Shown here: one piece after another, positions 1,164 to 50,120 of the stretch
How the letters are laid out: each line of letters opens with the position of its first letter
Position numbering within the stretch: the stretch's first letter is position 1
Virus record (IMG/VR): IMGVR_UViG_2671181136_000006
Origin: a virus
Lineage: Duplodnaviria; Heunggongvirae; Uroviricota; Caudoviricetes
Direction: 5' to 3' (one strand)
DNA length: 64,000 nucleotides
Made by a program: the position numbers and the translations under genes
The notes under the pieces: generated by a model
Databases searched by the model: none
The model's input: only the letters and a program-made list of their open reading frames with translations
What the model was told of the DNA's origin: nothing

Positions 1164-1798
1164 TCGTCATCCTCATCACAGAATGAAAGTAGTGGGTTAG
1201 TCATTCGCCCTACCTGAGTAGCGTAGCCACGCCGACAGAGATTGCGCAGCACACTGTATATTTCGAACATCTCGGTTCGTTCACCGCCAACATCAAGCTC
1301 AGATGCTATAGCGTGACATTCAGTCGCGAGAGCCGATATTTTCTGAAATAACTCTGCTTTATTCACTGTTCGACTCCTGCGGCGTTCTGGTAGTGGCATC
1401 CAGTGTGTGACATTGCTAATCAGACCATATTCATTAGTTTGAGGATGGTTGCCGTTATCGTCTCCGTATTTAAGACTCTCCATAAAGCCATAATGCCTAT
1501 CACCATTAACGCTCACAAAGCCGTAATAAGCAGGTATAACGCCGATCTCACACATAACCAGTAAAGGAAAACTAGTTCTCCAATTTAGCTCGCCAATTAC
1601 AGGCATTCGCTCACTACAGCTTATCCAACCATCCTTAGATGCGGCTGTATTGGCATAGGCCTTACGGTGCTTCTGTAGCTCTGCTGCAATCGCTCTCACG
1701 ACTTCAACTGGTGCCCTTGCAGCAAACTCAATGTTGGTGATCAGCTCATTAAGATATTTCTCGCTTGGGTAGCATTTCTTATTGTTAACGGTGGTCAT
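1160..1798 (-). CDS. hypothetical phage protein (possible DUF551-like C-terminus)
   Basis: 212 aa; C-terminal THWMPLPE-type motif recalled from DUF551 phage proteins. Confidence 0.35.
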   Translation of the reverse strand: MTTVNNKKCYPSEKYLNELITNIEFAARAPVEVVRAIAAELQKHRKAYANTAASKDGWISCSERMPVIGELNWRTSFPLLVMCEIGVIPAYYGFVSVNGDRHYGFMESLKYGDDNGNHPQTNEYGLISNVTHWMPLPERRRSRTVNKAELFQKISALATECHAIASELDVGGERTEMFEIYSVLRNLCRRGYATQVGRMTNPLLSFCDEDDE

Positions 1799-1983: not shown

Positions 1984-2402
1984 CGTGCTGCCCCCTCTTT
2001 GGTGAAAATGCCTGCTGCAATGCTGTTTATGATGCTGTCAGTGCATGGAGTAGAAAGCTGGGCATCTCCAGCAATTTTCATGACCTCAACATCCGCATAT
2101 CGAATACCGAGGTGTATCAGACCGGCTATACCTGACTTAAGTCGAACATTTTCCATAAACAGATCCTTTTCCCGCTGTTTAACGGTCTCCAGCTCAACAC
2201 GCAACTTCTCAATTTCGGCAGCCATGTAGTAACCAACCATAGCGAAAGTGGCGAAAGGGTAGTCCGAATCATCAGGAGATACGGCGGCCATTAGCAGACC
2301 ATCGTGCATGTTCTGGCTTCCATCAGTGATGGATACCGCATAAGAATCGCTGGTTTCCCGTTTATACAATACGACGACCGGGTTCTTGATTTTCTCTCTC
2401 AT
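1980..2402 (-). CDS. hypothetical protein
   Basis: 140-aa ORF. Confidence 0.35.
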   Translation of the reverse strand: MREKIKNPVVVLYKRETSDSYAVSITDGSQNMHDGLLMAAVSPDDSDYPFATFAMVGYYMAAEIEKLRVELETVKQREKDLFMENVRLKSGIAGLIHLGIRYADVEVMKIAGDAQLSTPCTDSIINSIAAGIFTKEGAAR

Positions 2403-2956
2403 TACGATGCCTCTAACTTGTCTAACTCTTTCAGCCCTTCACGTACCGCGTTCACAATGCGTTCCAGATACTGGTATTTCGGGTTTGGTACCGTTGGCCA
2501 GTCGGCATACCACGGATCATCACCAAAGAGATTCAGCAGTTTGTTACCGACGCCGAAACAACAGCAGCTTTCTTTTACGTCATCGGCGTTTTCCGCCTCG
2601 TCCCACATTTCACGAGCCAGTACGGCGTCGATTTCTCTCTCTCTTCGTAACTTTATGATTTCTGACTTCACGAAAAGCAGATTTGCATCGTTGTCATCGT
2701 CGACCGTGCTTCGCAGTTGAGAGTCGAAATAGCCGATTAGATACTCGTTGCTGACCCGCTTAATGAACGTCTGCACATCATCACCGCCCATAGCAAACCA
2801 AGCCGCAGTCCACGCTTTTCCGTAGCAGATGATGGTGATTCTTCCCTTACCAGGTTCGTAGTTTTCAATCATTACTCGAACCGGATCGAGGCGTTCCAGA
2901 TCCGTCAGCACAAAGGAAAGAACATCTATTTTTTCGACCTTCATGCAGCCTCCCAC
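2402..2956 (-). CDS. hypothetical protein
   Basis: 184-aa ORF. Confidence 0.35.
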   Translation of the reverse strand: MGGCMKVEKIDVLSFVLTDLERLDPVRVMIENYEPGKGRITIICYGKAWTAAWFAMGGDDVQTFIKRVSNEYLIGYFDSQLRSTVDDDNDANLLFVKSEIIKLRREREIDAVLAREMWDEAENADDVKESCCCFGVGNKLLNLFGDDPWYADWPTVPNPKYQYLERIVNAVREGLKELDKLEAS

Positions 2957-39900: not shown

Positions 39901-40504
39901 TCAATGCGCTGGCGACTTTCATCGCCCGGACGTTAATCTGGTCGTAGAATGGGGTAGGGTGCGGATAAACCACACTATAGAAGTTGTCTTTTCCACCCGC
40001 TGTAATCAGTGTGCTTATGATTTTTGCAAAATCGTTGCGTTGGAACACGCTACCGATGTCGGAAGTAAGCAGGATGATGTTGCCTTTGGCATATGTAGAA
40101 ACCAACTGTTCGAGCGAGAGACGCGGTACAAAGTAGAACTGTTCTCGTGTGTTGGCCGCCGTCATTAGTTCGCAGATGTCGCGATATCCTTTCTCATTTT
40201 TAATTAGAGCGGTAAACGAGTAGTTACGTCCTCGCTCTAATGATTCCATACATCTCATAGATTCTTTAGCAAGTTTAGCCCGGTGCTCGTATGTGGGATC
40301 ATCAACAATGTTTAGTTTCACACCACAAATAACCGCCATGTCGTCACCAGCGGCACGTTGTAGTGGAATAACGCTCGCAATATTCATGCTATCTGCTGAA
40401 ATTACAGCGGTGTAGCCAGCTTCTCTGGCAATCTTCACCGCGTTTTCTGCTTTTAGAGCCGACTCCCCAAGTGAGAAGTCAGTTCGAACCATCAGTGCCT
40501 TCAT
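36986..40504 (-). CDS. dnaE: DNA polymerase III alpha subunit (DnaE family, PHP domain N-terminal)
   Basis: 1172 aa; N-terminal PHP domain pattern, central polymerase core and GxGRGSSAGSLV-type motifs typical of bacterial replicative pol C family. Confidence 0.9.
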   Translation of the reverse strand: MKALMVRTDFSLGESALKAENAVKIAREAGYTAVISADSMNIASVIPLQRAAGDDMAVICGVKLNIVDDPTYEHRAKLAKESMRCMESLERGRNYSFTALIKNEKGYRDICELMTAANTREQFYFVPRLSLEQLVSTYAKGNIILLTSDIGSVFQRNDFAKIISTLITAGGKDNFYSVVYPHPTPFYDQINVRAMKVASALKIEPVAFYPAYYESIDDADIKDIAHMVTNNIKIDQPHRLRIPHQRDNAVNGRRHLLEALKAFSVRMDVPVTAAMASTTQDTIIDACTWRWHELPPALPKMADDEPATLMKLAVAGLRKRLTTKEFGYTPPASENRVYVERLKYEMDTLTRLGFCGYFLMVRDLMNHSRETGIPVGPGRGSSAGSLVAWCIGITNVDPIRHGLLFERFINPERLDLPDADLDFSQARRHEVIEYLNERYGEDYVAGIPNFTYLGAASALRDTARIYGVESADMAVSKELKNVEDDSLPLEELREQLASLDKYATKYPDAFNAACKLQSLMRGFGRHAAGMIVAGVPLTERTPVERRGDARCIAFDKRYCEAMGLIKLDVLGLATLDLLDSAKRYIKENTGEDINLDAISLEDRKVLDGFAAGYTQGVFQLESGPMRKLLKDLGGGIEPMSFKTVVATTALFRPGPIQSGMLDDYVSVAKGFMTPESLHPVLDELTAETNGVILYQEQTMNATRLLAGFTMAEADGVRKAIGKKDMEKMKSMGEKFIVQAQAGWIDVELEDGTTQRIHRAEHFKCEDGTLKTVEEALEYGAKLPINAVRVTASHPGLSEMKAKEIWTAFEKNGAYQFNKSHSVAYSLISYQSMWLKTHYPAEFFAAALTILGEDKHQGLVKDALTYGIRVLPPDVNVSSNRIEIRTLEDGSQVLYAPFSAVKGCSENGCQAIMRAREKVGGKFESLAQFEEAVEKRACNSRVRESLQKVGAFASIEPGSLPATDPERLRDQAELMGNLVIDAVKASRPFEMNPKRSAEINVLMTRMAAEMGLGDELIRPSIGIKPKIMIILDNANGNDARTGYFMENGYDDFKAKLLTAGDLRMGDLYVTGVCKKVKDKEKDYTKDEIGQFTDFMREEINLVRPTYVLTCGSRATSLFNNKNKPSDLVGRKEYLPDLDVTVFYGFNPNILYFRPEEGERLEAILADVAETIKS

Positions 40505-44686: not shown

Positions 44687-45073
44687 ATGTCTGACAACAA
44701 GATTGAATTTATAGAAAGTCGCTATGCTGCTTTTATCGCAGGGCTGATTGAATCCTCACCTATGAGTCAGGCCCAAATAGCCAGACTTATTGGTTATAAA
44801 AATGCCAACAACCTTTCTTTAATTAAAAGTGGCAAAATTCCTTTGCCTATCGATAAGGTTCGTCCGTTGGCGCTGGCGCTGGGTATTGAGCCAAGTCGTC
44901 TTATGATGATGGTGCTGGAAGAACGCCAACCTGAACTCGCAGCATTTTTATACAAAGAAGGCACCGCTCCTCTTAACGAGGACGAAAAACAGGTTCTTGC
45001 TGCATATAACGAGCGATTCGGTAAAGAGAAAGGCGCATCACAAAAGGTTGTTGAGGCTATAAAGTCTCTATGA
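44687..45073 (+). CDS. HTH DNA-binding protein (XRE-like), candidate repressor
   Basis: SQAQIARLIGYKNANNLSLIKSG helix-turn-helix pattern; start set to MSDNK (ORF track starts 44657). Confidence 0.5.
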   Translation: MSDNKIEFIESRYAAFIAGLIESSPMSQAQIARLIGYKNANNLSLIKSGKIPLPIDKVRPLALALGIEPSRLMMMVLEERQPELAAFLYKEGTAPLNEDEKQVLAAYNERFGKEKGASQKVVEAIKSL

Positions 45074-46171
45074 AAAATTTACACGAATAAGCTCTGTTGA
45101 TAGACGATCTCCCTTGAATTTGTGGTCAATTTCGTCTAAATCCGGTTGCTCTACGATTGATGCGATGTACGTCGAGAAACTTTCTAAGGCGTCTCGCATC
45201 TCGTCCATATAATCGTGCCGGTCGTAGACTCGATCTATCCCCTCAAGACTGTGGTTCATGATTTTGCGTGATACCTCCTGGCTTATGCCTAATGCTGGGA
45301 AGTAACTACGCGCAGTACGGCGCAAGTCTCGGGGTGTAAATGGCTCAAGCTCCATCAGTTCTGGTCGTTCCAGAATACGACGTAATGCCTGGGCTATTGC
45401 CACTTTAGACATAGGAAGGTCTTTCCCGATTTTTTTATTCGAAGGCACGAGCCACTGGCTGCCTTTACCGTATTCGAACAACTCTTCAATACATGTGCGC
45501 ATTAATGTGCTTAAAGGCAGCGAATGCTCACGGGCAGATTTGTTCCTCTTGCCTTGATTCCAAACCCCACGCTTAAGATTGAACTCACTTTTTTTAGCCC
45601 GCAGTACTTCGTCAGGTCGTCTTGCGGATACAAGACACAGCCTGGCCGCCCATTTTGTACCAGCGCACACATTGAAGTAGTCCCATATATTCCAGAACAC
45701 CCATACCTCTGCGTCGGTCAGCTTCCGCTCGCGAGGTGTGGGCTTTGCGCCACCGGCAACTTTGTTTAGTGACATATCGTTTAACGGTGACACGTCTATC
45801 ATCCCCTGGAAGGCGCACCAGCTAAGGAACTGCTTCATCAGAGAGAAAACGCGGCGGCCCATAACAATTTTGCCATCCAGTATTAGTGGGTTGACCAGTT
45901 GGTTCACCATGAACCTATTAATGTCACTTACTTTTACATCGGCAATGTGCGGCAAAACATGTATCAAAATACAATGAACAGCGATCTCTGGCCGACGTCT
46001 GGTTATCAGCAGAGATAAGCGAGTGAATAACATGAATGCGTCCGAGAATCTCATGTCATTGCTGACCTGGGAGATCATAACGGCCTGCATTTGAGATGCT
46101 CTTTCGAGATACTCAATCGCCTCTTTTGAGGTGTTCTCCGCAGCGCGTGCTCTGTCAAAGCTATTTTTCAT
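45068..46171 (-). CDS. tyrosine site-specific recombinase (integrase/resolvase family)
   Basis: C-terminal catalytic pattern R...H..R...Y (RDLRRTARS; HSLEGIDRVYDRHDY). Confidence 0.8.
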   Translation of the reverse strand: MKNSFDRARAAENTSKEAIEYLERASQMQAVMISQVSNDMRFSDAFMLFTRLSLLITRRRPEIAVHCILIHVLPHIADVKVSDINRFMVNQLVNPLILDGKIVMGRRVFSLMKQFLSWCAFQGMIDVSPLNDMSLNKVAGGAKPTPRERKLTDAEVWVFWNIWDYFNVCAGTKWAARLCLVSARRPDEVLRAKKSEFNLKRGVWNQGKRNKSAREHSLPLSTLMRTCIEELFEYGKGSQWLVPSNKKIGKDLPMSKVAIAQALRRILERPELMELEPFTPRDLRRTARSYFPALGISQEVSRKIMNHSLEGIDRVYDRHDYMDEMRDALESFSTYIASIVEQPDLDEIDHKFKGDRLSTELIRVNFS

Positions 46172-46269: not shown

Positions 46270-46302
46270 AATGATTCCATACATAGTAGGTATGGAATCA
46301 TT
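46270..46302. other. candidate recombination site: perfect 13-bp inverted repeats AATGATTCCATAC / GTATGGAATCATT around 7-bp spacer ATAGTAG
   Basis: read directly; about 100 bp upstream of recombinase start; arm repeated at 48885 and 49895. Confidence 0.5.
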
Positions 46303-47992: not shown

Positions 47993-48079
47993 TGGCGGAG
48001 AGTAATGGAATCGAACCATCATCGCTTGCGCAATGGGACGGTTTTCAAGACCGCTTGAGCACCATGCTCCCTACTCTCC
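47993..48079 (-). tRNA. tRNA-Ser (anticodon TGA), class II with long variable arm
   Basis: manual fold: 7-bp acceptor GGAGAGT/ACTCTCC, anticodon loop CTTGAAA, T-loop TTCGATT, encoded CCA. Confidence 0.75.
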
Positions 48080-48443
48080 GGCCGTTGTGGTGGCCGGTAC
48101 TGAATCTCCGGCATACGGTGCAGCCAATTAGGACTACGGACGATCACCGCTCGCGAAAGGGAAGATTTGCGGCCGCATTTCCCTAACATCCAAGAAAGCT
48201 ATCGCATCAGTCTGCGAATCCACCACAACGGTAAGATCACTACCTTTCGACCAGTCATTGTGCACATGAACGACGATTAACCGTAATGATCTTATCGTTG
48301 TGTTGTGAAGCCAGATGCTTATCTTCTGGTTGCCTCAAAGAGCTGCACTTCCTCACAACGGTAAGAGCACTGGTCTGACTCTATCGATTTACGGGCTTGT
48401 GGGTCAGTATCGCCGATTCGCCCAATGCACTTACCTGTTGTGT

Positions 48444-48615: not shown

Positions 48616-48690
48616 TGGCGATGGTGGGTGGATTCGAACCACCGACCAGTTGGTTAACAGCCAACTGCTCTACCGCTGAGCTACACCATC
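48616..48690 (-). tRNA. tRNA-Asn (anticodon GTT)
   Basis: acceptor GATGGTG/CACCATC, anticodon stem GTTGG/CCAAC loop CTGTTAA, T-loop GGTTCGAATCC, CCA. Confidence 0.85.
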
Positions 48691-49468
48691 AATTCAGCAC
48701 TGCCAGTATTTATTACTCAACAGTGCCAATCGCGACGGTTTAGTTTCTGCCAGGAAACGCACCGCTACTTGCACTTTTCGTTAGTGCCAGACGCTTTCGA
48801 CTTCGCTCAATAGTAGAAGGCAAAATCTTTAAGTAGATGATGTTTCTGAGGACAGCACCTACTTTGTAATTTATACAATGTGATGTATGGAATCATTTGT
48901 TGTGAAAACAGGCACCAATGGCAACAGTGGTTAAACCTACACAACAATCCTGTCTTCACAACGTTGAGGCCACTACTCCGATTGAATGTTTGCCCAACAT
49001 GTTACATATCAACGCTCGCCGGTATCTCTGTGAATAGAACCTTAGAATTGATAAAAATGTAATGGCCTCAACGTTATGTGCTGGCTAACCATACCAGCCG
49101 GGCTACGTCGCCGCTTTTTAACCCAGTATAAACGACATAATTGAACAAAATGACGTAACAGGATGGGCGGTCAGTGGCTAAGAATCCGGGAGTCATATGG
49201 AGTTGAAAATATACCAACCGCCCATTCTGTTACTTCATCGGAGGGAACATGAATGTTCCCTCCTGCGTTCTGCAATCACACTCGCTCAGTGTGTCCCATT
49301 TCGGTAACGAGGCTGGAAACTGACCTCGCTGGTGTTTGGCTTATTAGGCTACTGCCAGATAGACTTCTTCGTTTGCACTTGTATTTAAGTTCAAACAGTC
49401 GCGTCTCAACGAAAACAAAGTCATCTTATACACAAAAGATAAGTAAGTAAATACTTATCAATATGTTT

Positions 49469-49759
49469 TTATTCGGTTGTGACTTTTTTGATCAAGGCCA
49501 CTCTACGACTAGGTGTTCTTGTAATGGTGGCAGTGAATCGTTTCGCTTGGATAGTAATGGTTTCGTTCTCCTTAAGTTGCCCGTAGCGAGTTTCCACCAG
49601 GGTGCCAAGACGCCACAGACCATCATCGATACGTTTATGACTAGCAAATTTAATCAGCAACAGTTTTACGACTAACTGACCTACGTAAAAGGCGAATGCG
49701 ACTCCGGCCGCTAAGAAATAGGTGGCCAACCACCATTCCCAAGAAGTTAAATTGCTCAT
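49469..49759 (-). CDS. membrane protein, hypothetical
   Basis: 96 aa, N-terminal hydrophobic helix. Confidence 0.35.
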   Translation of the reverse strand: MSNLTSWEWWLATYFLAAGVAFAFYVGQLVVKLLLIKFASHKRIDDGLWRLGTLVETRYGQLKENETITIQAKRFTATITRTPSRRVALIKKVTTE

Positions 49760-49904
49760 TTTTTCACCTTTGTTTCATGAACTACCCGATACACACGCTT
49801 TCCGATGCACAGTGTTTTGGTTTTAAGTTCCTGCTTAATTAAATCACGACAGATGCCGAAGCCGATAAGGAAGCCACCCATAAAAGCTAATGAGATGTAT
49901 GGAA

Positions 49905-50120
49905 TCATTTTAACGCTCCTGATTCTACTAATTGCTGTAGCAATACTTTCCCTTTATCAGTTAACTGGTAGTTGGCCGAACACCACGTTTCAGAAACGTT
50001 TGCAACCAACCCTAAACGCTCTAACTTAGCTCGCGTTTTAGGCTTCCAGTACTCAGGGAACTCCGGCCACTTACTGATTTCATGAAGCGTTTCCTTCTCC
50101 CGTTTACTTAATACGATCAT
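49905..50120 (-). CDS. hypothetical protein
   Basis: 71-aa ORF; competing plus-strand ORF 49805-50029. Confidence 0.3.
   Translation of the reverse strand: MIVLSKREKETLHEISKWPEFPEYWKPKTRAKLERLGLVANVSETWCSANYQLTDKGKVLLQQLVESGALK

Follow-up and report, generated by a model that had tools for sequence, protein, structure and literature searches.

A candidate tmRNA-like RNA gene without a tRNA-like domain beside the tRNA island of an SSU5-like phage-plasmid

The window analysed here, the whole 64,000 nucleotide (nt) stretch from IMG/VR record IMGVR_UViG_2671181136_000006, is an SSU5-like phage-plasmid of Escherichia coli, and our subject is its gap at 48700–49465, between a tRNA-Asn gene (48616–48690) and a small conserved gene (49469–49759), both on the minus strand. 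At ~49418–49263 the minus strand of this gap carries what appears to be a gene for a ~155 nt structured RNA core, which resembles the message-and-pseudoknot half of transfer-messenger RNA (tmRNA, the product of ssrA). Judged from its sequence and those of its relatives, this is very probably a structured RNA gene of tmRNA ancestry, and the region appears to belong to a previously unannotated family of tmRNA-like RNAs, carried by enterobacterial mobile elements, that lack the tRNA-like domain (TLD). We infer that the element most likely reprograms or interferes with host trans-translation; a function tied to that pathway is probable, and we put the identity as a tmRNA-like RNA and the role in trans-translation, taken jointly, at about 0.5. 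An earlier note on this DNA overlooked the tag frame and pseudoknots at 49263–49418. Its suggestion of a regulatory or non-coding RNA hub was right in kind, as the gap appears to hold a non-coding RNA gene and structured 3′ modules on the same minus strand as the tRNA island, and its alternative of a recombination or packaging locus found no support.

Tag frame, pseudoknots and distribution of the core

The core (features and coordinates in Table 1) reads ...ACAAGU GCA AAC GAA GAA GUC UAU CUG GCA GUA GCC UAA UAA in the window, beside ...AUAGUC GCA AAC GAC GAA AAC UAC GCU UUA GCA GCU UAA UAA in E. coli ssrA (tag ANDENYALAA), and the first 8 nt of the tag frame (GCAAACGA) are the same in both. 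No conserved start codon for this frame is present in the family alignments. Across 124 loci, 23 distinct nucleotide versions encode 12 peptides, each fitting the pattern AN[DE]xx[YF]LAVA (with one aberrant sequence). Single-nucleotide codon differences number 344 synonymous to 301 non-synonymous in frame 0, against 33 to 558 and 164 to 338 in the other frames, and frame 0 alone has no internal stops. The alternatives at individual codons are UAU, UAC, UUU or UUC (Y/F) at codon 6, GAA, GAU or GAC (E/D) at codon 3 and GCC, GCU or GCG at codon 10. A shorter or longer tag frame was not found in 2.9 million viral contigs, compared with at least 120 members with exactly 10 codons. All members have A at −4, most share AUA at −6 to −4 with E. 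coli ssrA, and the window's lineage has ACA there; in tmRNA, the resume frame is set by these positions (A84-U85-A86). Two Rfam tmRNA models (beta_tmRNA and tmRNA_permuted) align exactly at the tag region, well under threshold. The coding-type constraint on the 10-codon frame argues for decoding, and we lean slightly towards the frame being actually decoded.

The helices that follow the frame are held by pairing across the family. The outer stem of the helix-5-like hairpin is 100% paired across 56 distinct sequences; stem 1 of pseudoknot A is 99.6–100% paired with three positions changed on both sides, and its stem 2 is 100% paired in non-SSU5 members with two doubly changed positions (CCAG/CUGG, CCAA/UUGG, CCGA/UCGG), the SSU5-type register, read from the sequences, being UUCCA/UGGGA, UUCCA/UGGAA and CUCCA/UGGAG. 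Stem 1 of pseudoknot B is likewise 100% paired with compensatory changes, whereas its tertiary stem 2, clear in other lineages, is weak or absent in SSU5-type members; it is rebuilt from unrelated sequences as GCCC/GGGC, GCCCAC/GUGGGC, GCCCUGA/UCAGGGC, GGCGGGAG/CUCCCGCC and GACGGGAG/CUCCCGUC. In the 16 non-SSU5 members 95.4% of cells pair, versus 31–42% with the partners slid, and 7 positions change on both sides; family-wide (56 distinct sequences) 95.3% of cells pair versus 27–39% slid, and 59 cells are doubly changed where 18.5 would be expected. These figures come from subgroup alignments and a covariance-model alignment, as MAFFT shifted the SSU5-type against the siphovirus-type pseudoknot strands by one column and misaligned the 5′ domain.

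A covariance model of the tag frame, helix 5 and stem 1 of both pseudoknots (R1), built from the 16 non-SSU5 sequences only, finds a single full-length match in the 64-kb window, at 49263–49388 on the minus strand (72.2 bits, E = 7e-16). It matches 99 of the 99 loci tested (72–157 bits) and gives no match to E. coli ssrA at E <= 0.01. By eye, candidate PK1 stems were seen in siphovirus- and Felix-type members (GUUUU/GAAAC with CUUUG/CAAAG; AGUUUU/AAAACU with UAUUUU/AAAAAUA), and a PK1-like pseudoknot in these other lineages is plausible; the window's lineage is without a clear equivalent, likewise judged by eye in the part that MAFFT misaligns.

The gap is 100% identical to plasmid CP025888 and 97–99% identical to phages Cyrano and CMS-2020a, and a gap of ~750–780 bp, blank in the annotation, is also present in SSU5 and Cyrano. 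By BLAST the element occurs in 773 plasmid records, 320 phage records and 258 of 5426 E. coli genomes. The plasmid records, which match the gap, are SSU5-like and come from Klebsiella, Escherichia, Enterobacter, Yersinia (pMT1), Salmonella (pHCM2) and others. A sub-segment of ~110–150 nt (~49274–49428) also matches unannotated DNA of unrelated phages, namely HK620/HK633, ~250 Felix O1-like phages and Klebsiella siphoviruses, in each case on the strand of the neighbouring tRNA genes or late transcripts, which corresponds to the minus strand of the window. The element lies inside the tRNA array in phage Michonne, adjoins tRNA-Ser, Arg or Met in Carvaje, pIS4-A and MK54, and lies between pR′/qut and tQ in HK620, where no tRNA occurs within 5 kb; in Felix-type phages the 248 nt that separate two ordinary tRNAs accommodate the whole unit. 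A DUF2828 “RNA-binding protein” gene, of a family we take to be related to Ro60/TROVE, stands at the edge of the tRNA array that holds the element in Citrobacter phage Michonne (4276–5111 of that locus); around the SSU5-like and HK620 copies of the element no DUF2828 gene was seen. Y RNA was considered as an identity for the element, a Ro-like gene lying near the Felix-type tRNA island, and was rejected.

PGAP annotates nothing at the element in the 258 E. coli genomes, and none of the Rfam 15 families matches it. No prior description came up when full texts were searched for the tag peptides and for tmRNA-like elements of phages, with subscription journals thinly covered, so that an earlier account is possible. 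An exhaustive 2014 tmRNA survey of RefSeq plasmids and viruses confined its phage ssrA entries to Bxz1-like mycobacteriophages, Bacillus phage G and, with the TLD alone, DS6A; it reported no ssrA for enterobacterial phages or plasmids (PMC4131195). A family model would fill an annotation gap of ~150 nt, or up to ~700 nt with the 3′ modules, in many records: the plasmid type that bears the element is present in ~5% of complete E. coli genomes, and the carriers include hundreds of plasmids, among them pMT1 of Yersinia pestis and pHCM2 of Salmonella Typhi, as well as several unrelated phage groups.

The putative sigma-70 promoter of the window scores 8/12, under the threshold of the promoter scan, and was read from the sequence. 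It aligns with tool-called promoters of unrelated phages, TTGACA-17-TAGATT (locus L006) and TTGACA-17-TAAGAT (the Michonne locus, L004), each 10/12, which sit 8–12 nt upstream of the conserved 5′ block; with this spacing, an acceptor piece could not fit upstream. The tRNAs, the small genes and, beyond them, a ligase gene are all encoded on the window's minus strand. No minus-strand terminator is predicted in the gap and the RNA is therefore probably co-transcribed with the tRNAs; transcription of the whole unit would start at a weak sigma-70 promoter of its own and read on into the tRNA genes downstream, the RNA presumably being released by tRNA processing.

Table 1. Features of the gap and related sites in the window
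Feature	Position	Strand	Details
Putative sigma-70 promoter	49423–49451	−	−35 TTTACT (49451–49446), 17-nt spacer, −10 TAAGAT (49428–49423)
Invariant 5′ block GUUUUCGU	49409–49416	−	At or near RNA 5′ end; complementary to host ssrA nt 96–106 (tag codons 3–6)
5′ domain	49377–49408	−	Small hairpin UCGU/GCGA and A-rich linker, ACA at −6 to −4 before resume codon; alignments
Tag reading frame	49341–49376	−	GCA resume codon 49376–49374; 10 codons ANEEVYLAVA 49376–49347; stops UAA UAA 49346–49341
Helix-5-like stem	49329–49358	−	CUGG/CCAG and inner GC/GC stem, stop codons in loop; outer stem invariant
Pseudoknot A	49294–49328	−	Stem 1 CGAGG (49328–49324)/CCUCG (49312–49308); stem 2 UUCCA (49318–49314)/UGGGA (49298–49294)
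Pseudoknot B region	49263–49293	−	3′ end of conserved core; stem 1 CACACU (49293–49288)/AGUGUG (49282–49277)
Hairpin I6 (perfect palindrome)	49240–49263	−	First helix of 3′ extension; RNAalifold, 10 pairs, 5 changed on both sides
Long helix I1	49150–49238	−	~22 bp, variable apical insert; RNAalifold, several compensatory pairs
Small hairpin UUAUGUCGUU/GGCGACGUAG	49140–49131 / 49112–49103	−	RNAalifold; never varies, hence no covariation evidence
Small hairpin GCUGGU/GCCAGC	49098–49093 / 49085–49080	−	RNAalifold; one compensatory change
Helix I2 (12-bp inverted repeat)	48957–49078	−	~19 bp, clamp CAYAAC/GUUGUG; compensatory changes
Helix I3	48899–48962	−	5′ arm (GUUGUG) overlaps I2 3′ arm
Lineage-variable spacer into tRNA-Asn	48691–48881	−	Similarity to SSU5 absent below ~48882
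Isolated half-sites ATGATTCCATACATC	40240–40254; 48882–48896; 49894–49908	+; −; −	Three outside the core-like site

A possible role in trans-translation and its rivals

The constraint on the frame suggests that it is decoded, yet the missing TLD speaks against its being decoded on its own; complementarity of the 5′ block to host ssrA could reconcile both. The GUUUUCG of this block is invariant in 25 of 25 representatives, and in every lineage the block is an 8–10 nt perfect complement to E. coli ssrA, always within nt 96–106, a stretch that starts directly 3′ of GCA AAC, the two codons common to both RNAs. Different lineages lengthen the match on different sides (UAGUUUUCGU, AGUUUUCGUC) with the host match retained. 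The predicted duplexes have a free energy of −10.7 to −14.9 kcal/mol, which is reached by 0–19 of 300 composition-matched shuffles; they were scored on short segments, as duplex folding of the full-length RNAs forces whole-length duplexes and is uninformative. The target is identical in the ssrA of E. coli, of the Klebsiella record and of the Salmonella-labelled record, and a possible codon-5 tag difference in Salmonella ssrA was not seen in the one Salmonella-labelled record. Pairing of the window's 5′ block with its own tag is weak (−7.5 kcal/mol), the tag differing at precisely these codons.

On these observations we prefer, with low confidence, a model in which the RNA rides on the host system. 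While host Ala-tmRNA-SmpB is rescuing ribosomes, the element would supply an alternative tag template, (A)AN[DE]xx[YF]LAVA, in place of (A)ANDENYALAA. Having no TLD, it would reach the ribosome through its invariant 5′ block GUUUUCG(U), docked on tag codons 3–6 of the host tmRNA. The duplex, beginning right after tag codon 2, would occlude the host template, and the element's own resume region, which has its first two codons and the AUA frame-setting motif in common with the host RNA, would then be decoded. Rescued proteins would end in ...AAN[DE]xx[YF]LAVA and not in the ClpXP degron ...ALAA. This piggyback model, in which docking on host tmRNA is the delivery route and the element's own tag is substituted, is tentative and, although we favour it, doubtful in absolute terms. 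Were it true, the fate of truncated proteins would be altered during infection or plasmid carriage, and trans-translation would have its first case of reprogramming in trans, as well as the first natural template of the tmRNA type to be delivered without a covalent link.

Several points weigh against a role in trans-translation or against this route to it. ARAGORN, which picks up E. coli ssrA when given it as a control, calls no tmRNA in the window, in five reference loci or in 120 viral loci (−150 to +700). An Rfam search of the 780-nt gap at E<=10 matches no tRNA and no TLD, the best scores being 14–17 bits versus gathering scores of 47–84. The RNA 5′ end is AGUUUUCG and not GGGG, and the element shares only 8–10-nt words with host ssrA: blastn searches of E. 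coli genomes with the element miss ssrA, and ssrA searched against phages returns only prophage-flank copies and att fragments. We know of no trans-translation template that functions unless a TLD is covalently joined to it. A 10-bp duplex would normally be unwound by a translating ribosome, which leaves the template switch unexplained. The complementarity of the 5′ block was noticed post hoc, and shuffles reach its 8–9-nt versions in up to 1.6–6% of trials; the block could also be invariant for structural reasons alone, for instance by forming a stem in a PK1-like pseudoknot. As the ssrA tag sequence is the same in all hosts, no covariation between seed and target is visible; in a scan of GTDB genomes only three Enterobacteriaceae species representatives matched. 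Part of the coding-like pattern was collected using a search pattern with some positions fixed, and a search for RNA-seq data returned none.

The main rival to the piggyback model is an antagonist or sponge, in which an undecoded RNA inhibits or titrates trans-translation, either by antisense pairing of its 5′ block with the tag region of host tmRNA or by soaking up proteins, such as ribosomal protein S1, to which tmRNA's message-like and pseudoknot parts bind. We regard it as unlikely. The complementarity to ssrA nt 96–106 and the missing TLD suit it as well, and it would be the converse of the TLD-only fragment of DS6A, for which there is a precedent, as a TLD-only molecule similar to that fragment inhibits tmRNA (Hudson et al. 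2014; PMC4131195). It leaves unexplained, however, the coding-like frame, with its synonymous third-position changes, D/E and Y/F swaps, absence of stops, fixed length and double stop, and why the tag differs from that of the host exactly at the seed site.

Alternatively, an old tmRNA fragment may serve as a structural or processing module without a part in ribosome rescue, a stable spacer or leader that aids the folding, processing or stability of tRNA-island and late transcripts, with the tag frame a frozen relic. The embedding in tRNA islands without an own terminator fits this, as do the other clamped hairpins (CACAAC...GUUGUG), unlike tmRNA, held by the same islands and the dispensability of helices I2 and I3 of the 3′ extension. 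A relic would nevertheless be expected to gain stops, frameshifts and length changes, and none are seen across at least four unrelated mobile-element lineages; the flanking segments do accept indels whereas the frame does not, and several lineages have dedicated near-consensus promoters, which together make this reading improbable.

Quite improbable, too, is a complete but unconventional tmRNA, its chargeable domain unrecognised in variable helix tips or provided by a separate acceptor piece or an adjacent tRNA. Two-piece tmRNAs show that a tmRNA need not be a single chain, the element almost always adjoins tRNA genes, and T-arm-like hairpins (GGGUUCGAGUCCC, GCGGUUCGAAUCCGC) occur in helix tips beside the core of some relatives. 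Such inserts are, however, confined to few lineages and absent from the window and from Felix-type and MK54-type members; there is no GGGG 5′ acceptor strand, G3:U70 or free NCCA end, and ARAGORN and the Rfam tRNA and tmRNA models are blank. The tRNA-free surroundings in HK620 and the shortness of the Felix-type unit also argue against it.

A small protein gene, either the 26-aa in-frame open reading frame (ORF) of the window (MTLFSLRRDCLNLNTSANEEVYLAVA), which has an in-frame ATG upstream of the tag, or a 9-aa ORF (MQTKK...) from the AUG that overlaps the resume codon in the +1 frame of many members, is highly unlikely, since 1–2-nt indels before the resume codon break the former in close relatives and its ATG is ATT in SSU5, the +1-frame start is variously AUG, GUG or CUG with 33 synonymous versus 558 non-synonymous differences in that frame, and there is no Shine-Dalgarno sequence.

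The 3′ extension, tRNA-island spacers and recombinase sites

In SSU5-like phage-plasmids the core is followed by a ~330-nt lineage-specific 3′ extension of helices, which holds the repeats to which the earlier note had drawn attention; an RNAalifold consensus on 14 SSU5-type sequences recovers I6, I1 and the two small hairpins. The 12-bp inverted repeat AACGTTGAGGCC/GGCCTCAACGTT is indeed present (48960–48971 and 49064–49075) and grows to 20-nt arms at 48957–48976 and 49059–49078, 90% complementary with 82 nt between them; the perfect palindrome GGAGGGAACAT-GA-ATGTTCCCTCC is found at 49240–49263. Beyond these, two stronger or comparable inverted repeats occur at 49150–49171/49217–49238 (22 nt, 91%) and 48899–48912/48949–48962 (14 nt, 93%). 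The stretch was also said to hold no convincing ORF, and this agrees with what we find: the longest (50–65 aa) match no PHROG family and 1–2-nt indels among relatives break their frames, against six of six flanking ORFs tested that do match PHROG families. A dispersed-palindrome copy, also in that description, was not pinned down with certainty.

Each lineage has a different hairpin sequence at the position of I6. The pairs of I2 survive GC to AU (four sequences), CG to UA and AU to GC changes, and I3, also preserved through compensatory changes in lineages that have it, differs by lineage (AAGACAGG/CCUGUUUUC in the window versus GGCCACGG/CCGUGGCC in Klebsiella plasmids); owing to their overlap the two helices compete for 6 nt, and both are deleted or replaced in some lineages. 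Their clamp (CACAAC...GUUGUG) also flanks helices beside the core in siphoviruses and, as CACAAC/GTTGTG, recurs in the adjacent tRNA-Thr/tRNA-Ser spacer of the window, where it forms two hairpin modules (4 motif matches versus 0.05 expected), and I2 and I3 therefore look like generic tRNA-island spacer modules.

Structure prediction and comparison with relatives both bear out an RNA reading of these repeats, as the helices covary and the 522-nt transcript of the minus strand has a predicted folding energy of −182.3 kcal/mol (z = −6.6; none of 100 shuffles equals it), compared with −164.7 kcal/mol (z = −4.9) for the plus strand, a difference of 17.6 kcal/mol. Many helix positions are G·U pairs, which on the opposite strand would be C·A mismatches, and as several pairs are mostly G·U the functional strand is the minus strand. 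The inverted repeats and palindrome are thus best read, from pairing patterns, as RNA helices and not as DNA sites. A role at the level of DNA, either as the recombination or packaging locus that the earlier note proposed or as a replication origin, would suit the many inverted repeats, the recombinase half-site at 48882–48896 and a phage-plasmid replicon, and is very remote, since it is pairing and not sequence identity that is conserved, by compensatory changes and by G·U pairs functional on one strand only, the gap has no iterons and just short two-copy direct repeats, the core is common to phages with wholly different replication and packaging systems, and the arms of the three main repeats have no further copies elsewhere in the 64-kb window.

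The sole DNA-site-like feature of the gap is this one half-site at its 3′ edge, which is kept at the same position in SSU5-like relatives. It is the copy of the recombinase arm sequence that had been noticed before (ATGATTCCATACATC, minus strand), one of five in the window against 0.19 expected. At 46271–46301, ~100 bp upstream of the integrase gene (45068–46171, minus strand), ATGATTCCATAC-ATAGTAG-GTATGGAATCAT has 12-bp inverted arms and a 7-bp spacer, and looks like a tyrosine-recombinase core site. Two of the isolated half-sites, repeated in direct orientation at a distance of 1012 bp, enclose the tmRNA-like gene together with two small genes, and one half-site doubles as the start (MIPYI...) of the gene at 49756–49908.

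Further observations concern variants of the extension and its surroundings. The Enterobacter sp. CP102 plasmid (locus L016) and L061, of one SSU5-like lineage, have a ~70-codon ORF (MQDVDELKQAAATLLTKAIQQYRGDYGSMNTVEALRQGSSTMTVGHDGTISVHKDGVLRVRMGSLVGDHK) in place of I2 and I3 (RNA ~+310 to +520) and keep the core, I6, I1 and the recombinase half-site. A viral contig (L116) has an exact arm-to-arm deletion of I2 (window 48957–49078) with a single arm copy left, which suggests recombination or slippage between inverted or clamp repeats. The Thr-Ser spacer, 364 nt long and absent from Cyrano, has its hairpin modules at 48221–48305 and 48354–48442 (minus strand), both clamped by CACAAC-RGRUAAG...CUUACC-GUUGUG, the same as the siphovirus core-flanking module; clamped hairpins of this kind may recur in phage tRNA islands as processing or spacer elements. 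This region also includes CCGTTGTGGTGG/CCACCACAACGG, a perfect inverted repeat of 12 nt (48082–48093/48220–48231). T-arm-like hairpins (GGGUUCGAGUCCC, GCGGUUCGAAUCCGC, CAGGUUCAAUUCCUG) are found at the tips of GGUAAGAGC/GCUCUUUCC helices beside the core in Carvaje (~2380–2470, minus strand of locus L005) and BU9 (~1410–1500 and ~1625–1760, plus strand of L009). ARAGORN makes no tRNA call on the Carvaje hairpin, the only one for which this result applies, and these hairpins may be RNase P processing signals or tRNA relics; as a hidden TLD they were rejected, having no free 3′ end and occurring in few lineages only.

The similarity of the gap to SSU5 begins only at ~48882, and the last ~190 nt ahead of tRNA-Asn vary between lineages. 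Just upstream of tRNA-Asn, at 48700–48800 (minus strand), this spacer holds four TGGCA(C/G) repeats and a hairpin GCACUG...CAGUGC, and a block (UCUGGCACUAACGNAAAGUGCAAGU) in it is kept in several SSU5-like plasmids; a sigma-54 promoter there was ruled out, its spacing being wrong. The tRNA-Ser(UGA) at 47993–48080 (minus strand) scores 46.6 bits on the Rfam tRNA-Sec model (gathering score 47) and is almost certainly an ordinary long-arm tRNA-Ser.

Comparison with known systems

tmRNA is regarded as among the most uniform RNAs in bacteria, and to our knowledge every functional form of it couples a TLD to a tag template. A conserved, apparently selected, “template-only” relative on mobile elements suggests that these may manipulate ribosome rescue and proteolytic tagging in an undescribed way, or, alternatively, that a separate function may reside in the half of tmRNA made up of the mRNA-like part and the pseudoknots.

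Some resemblance extends to RNAs outside the tmRNA family. T4 RNA C and RNA D are stable RNAs of unknown function in phage tRNA clusters; the element is, by description only, likewise a small structured RNA among phage tRNA genes that is probably released by tRNA processing, and we know of no tag frame in RNA C or D. It shares with trans-acting antisense and sponge small RNAs a short, invariant and probably single-stranded 5′ segment complementary to an accessible host RNA, but is much larger and more structured, has no Rho-independent terminator or U-tail, and its putative target is tmRNA rather than an mRNA. Retron msr/msd was considered and rejected, as was GOLLD/ROOL, for which there is no Rfam match.

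The closest likeness is to tmRNA itself (RF00023, clan CL00001): a start-less frame that begins at a GCA resume codon after an A-rich linker with AUA at −6 to −4, a 10-codon tag that opens with AND or ANE, has an aromatic residue in sixth place and is rich in Ala, Val and Leu at its C-terminus, and stop codons in a helix-5-like loop, followed by H-type pseudoknots. Unlike tmRNA, the element is without acceptor stem, T-arm, CCA and long P2 helix, has at most two or three pseudoknots and a tag that ends in LAVA and not ALAA, and resides on phages and plasmids, not on chromosomes. As in the coding piece of two-piece tmRNAs (RF01850, RF04321), the tag frame and pseudoknots stand on a chain apart from the TLD 3′ half, and of the Rfam alignments, all below threshold, those to the models of this class were the best. 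In two-piece tmRNAs, known from alpha- and beta-proteobacteria and cyanobacteria, the coding piece begins with the 5′ acceptor strand and the acceptor piece is encoded just upstream, whereas the element has neither; upstream of it lies the promoter, or an ordinary tRNA and then the promoter, and ARAGORN, which detects permuted tmRNAs, calls none.

As a phage-borne gene related to tmRNA the element also joins the full-length tmRNAs of Bxz1-like phages and Bacillus phage G and the fragment in mycobacteriophage DS6A, which carries half a tmRNA, the TLD only (PMC4131195). The Bxz1-like and phage G tmRNAs are complete and DS6A retains the TLD, whereas the element described here keeps the opposite half.

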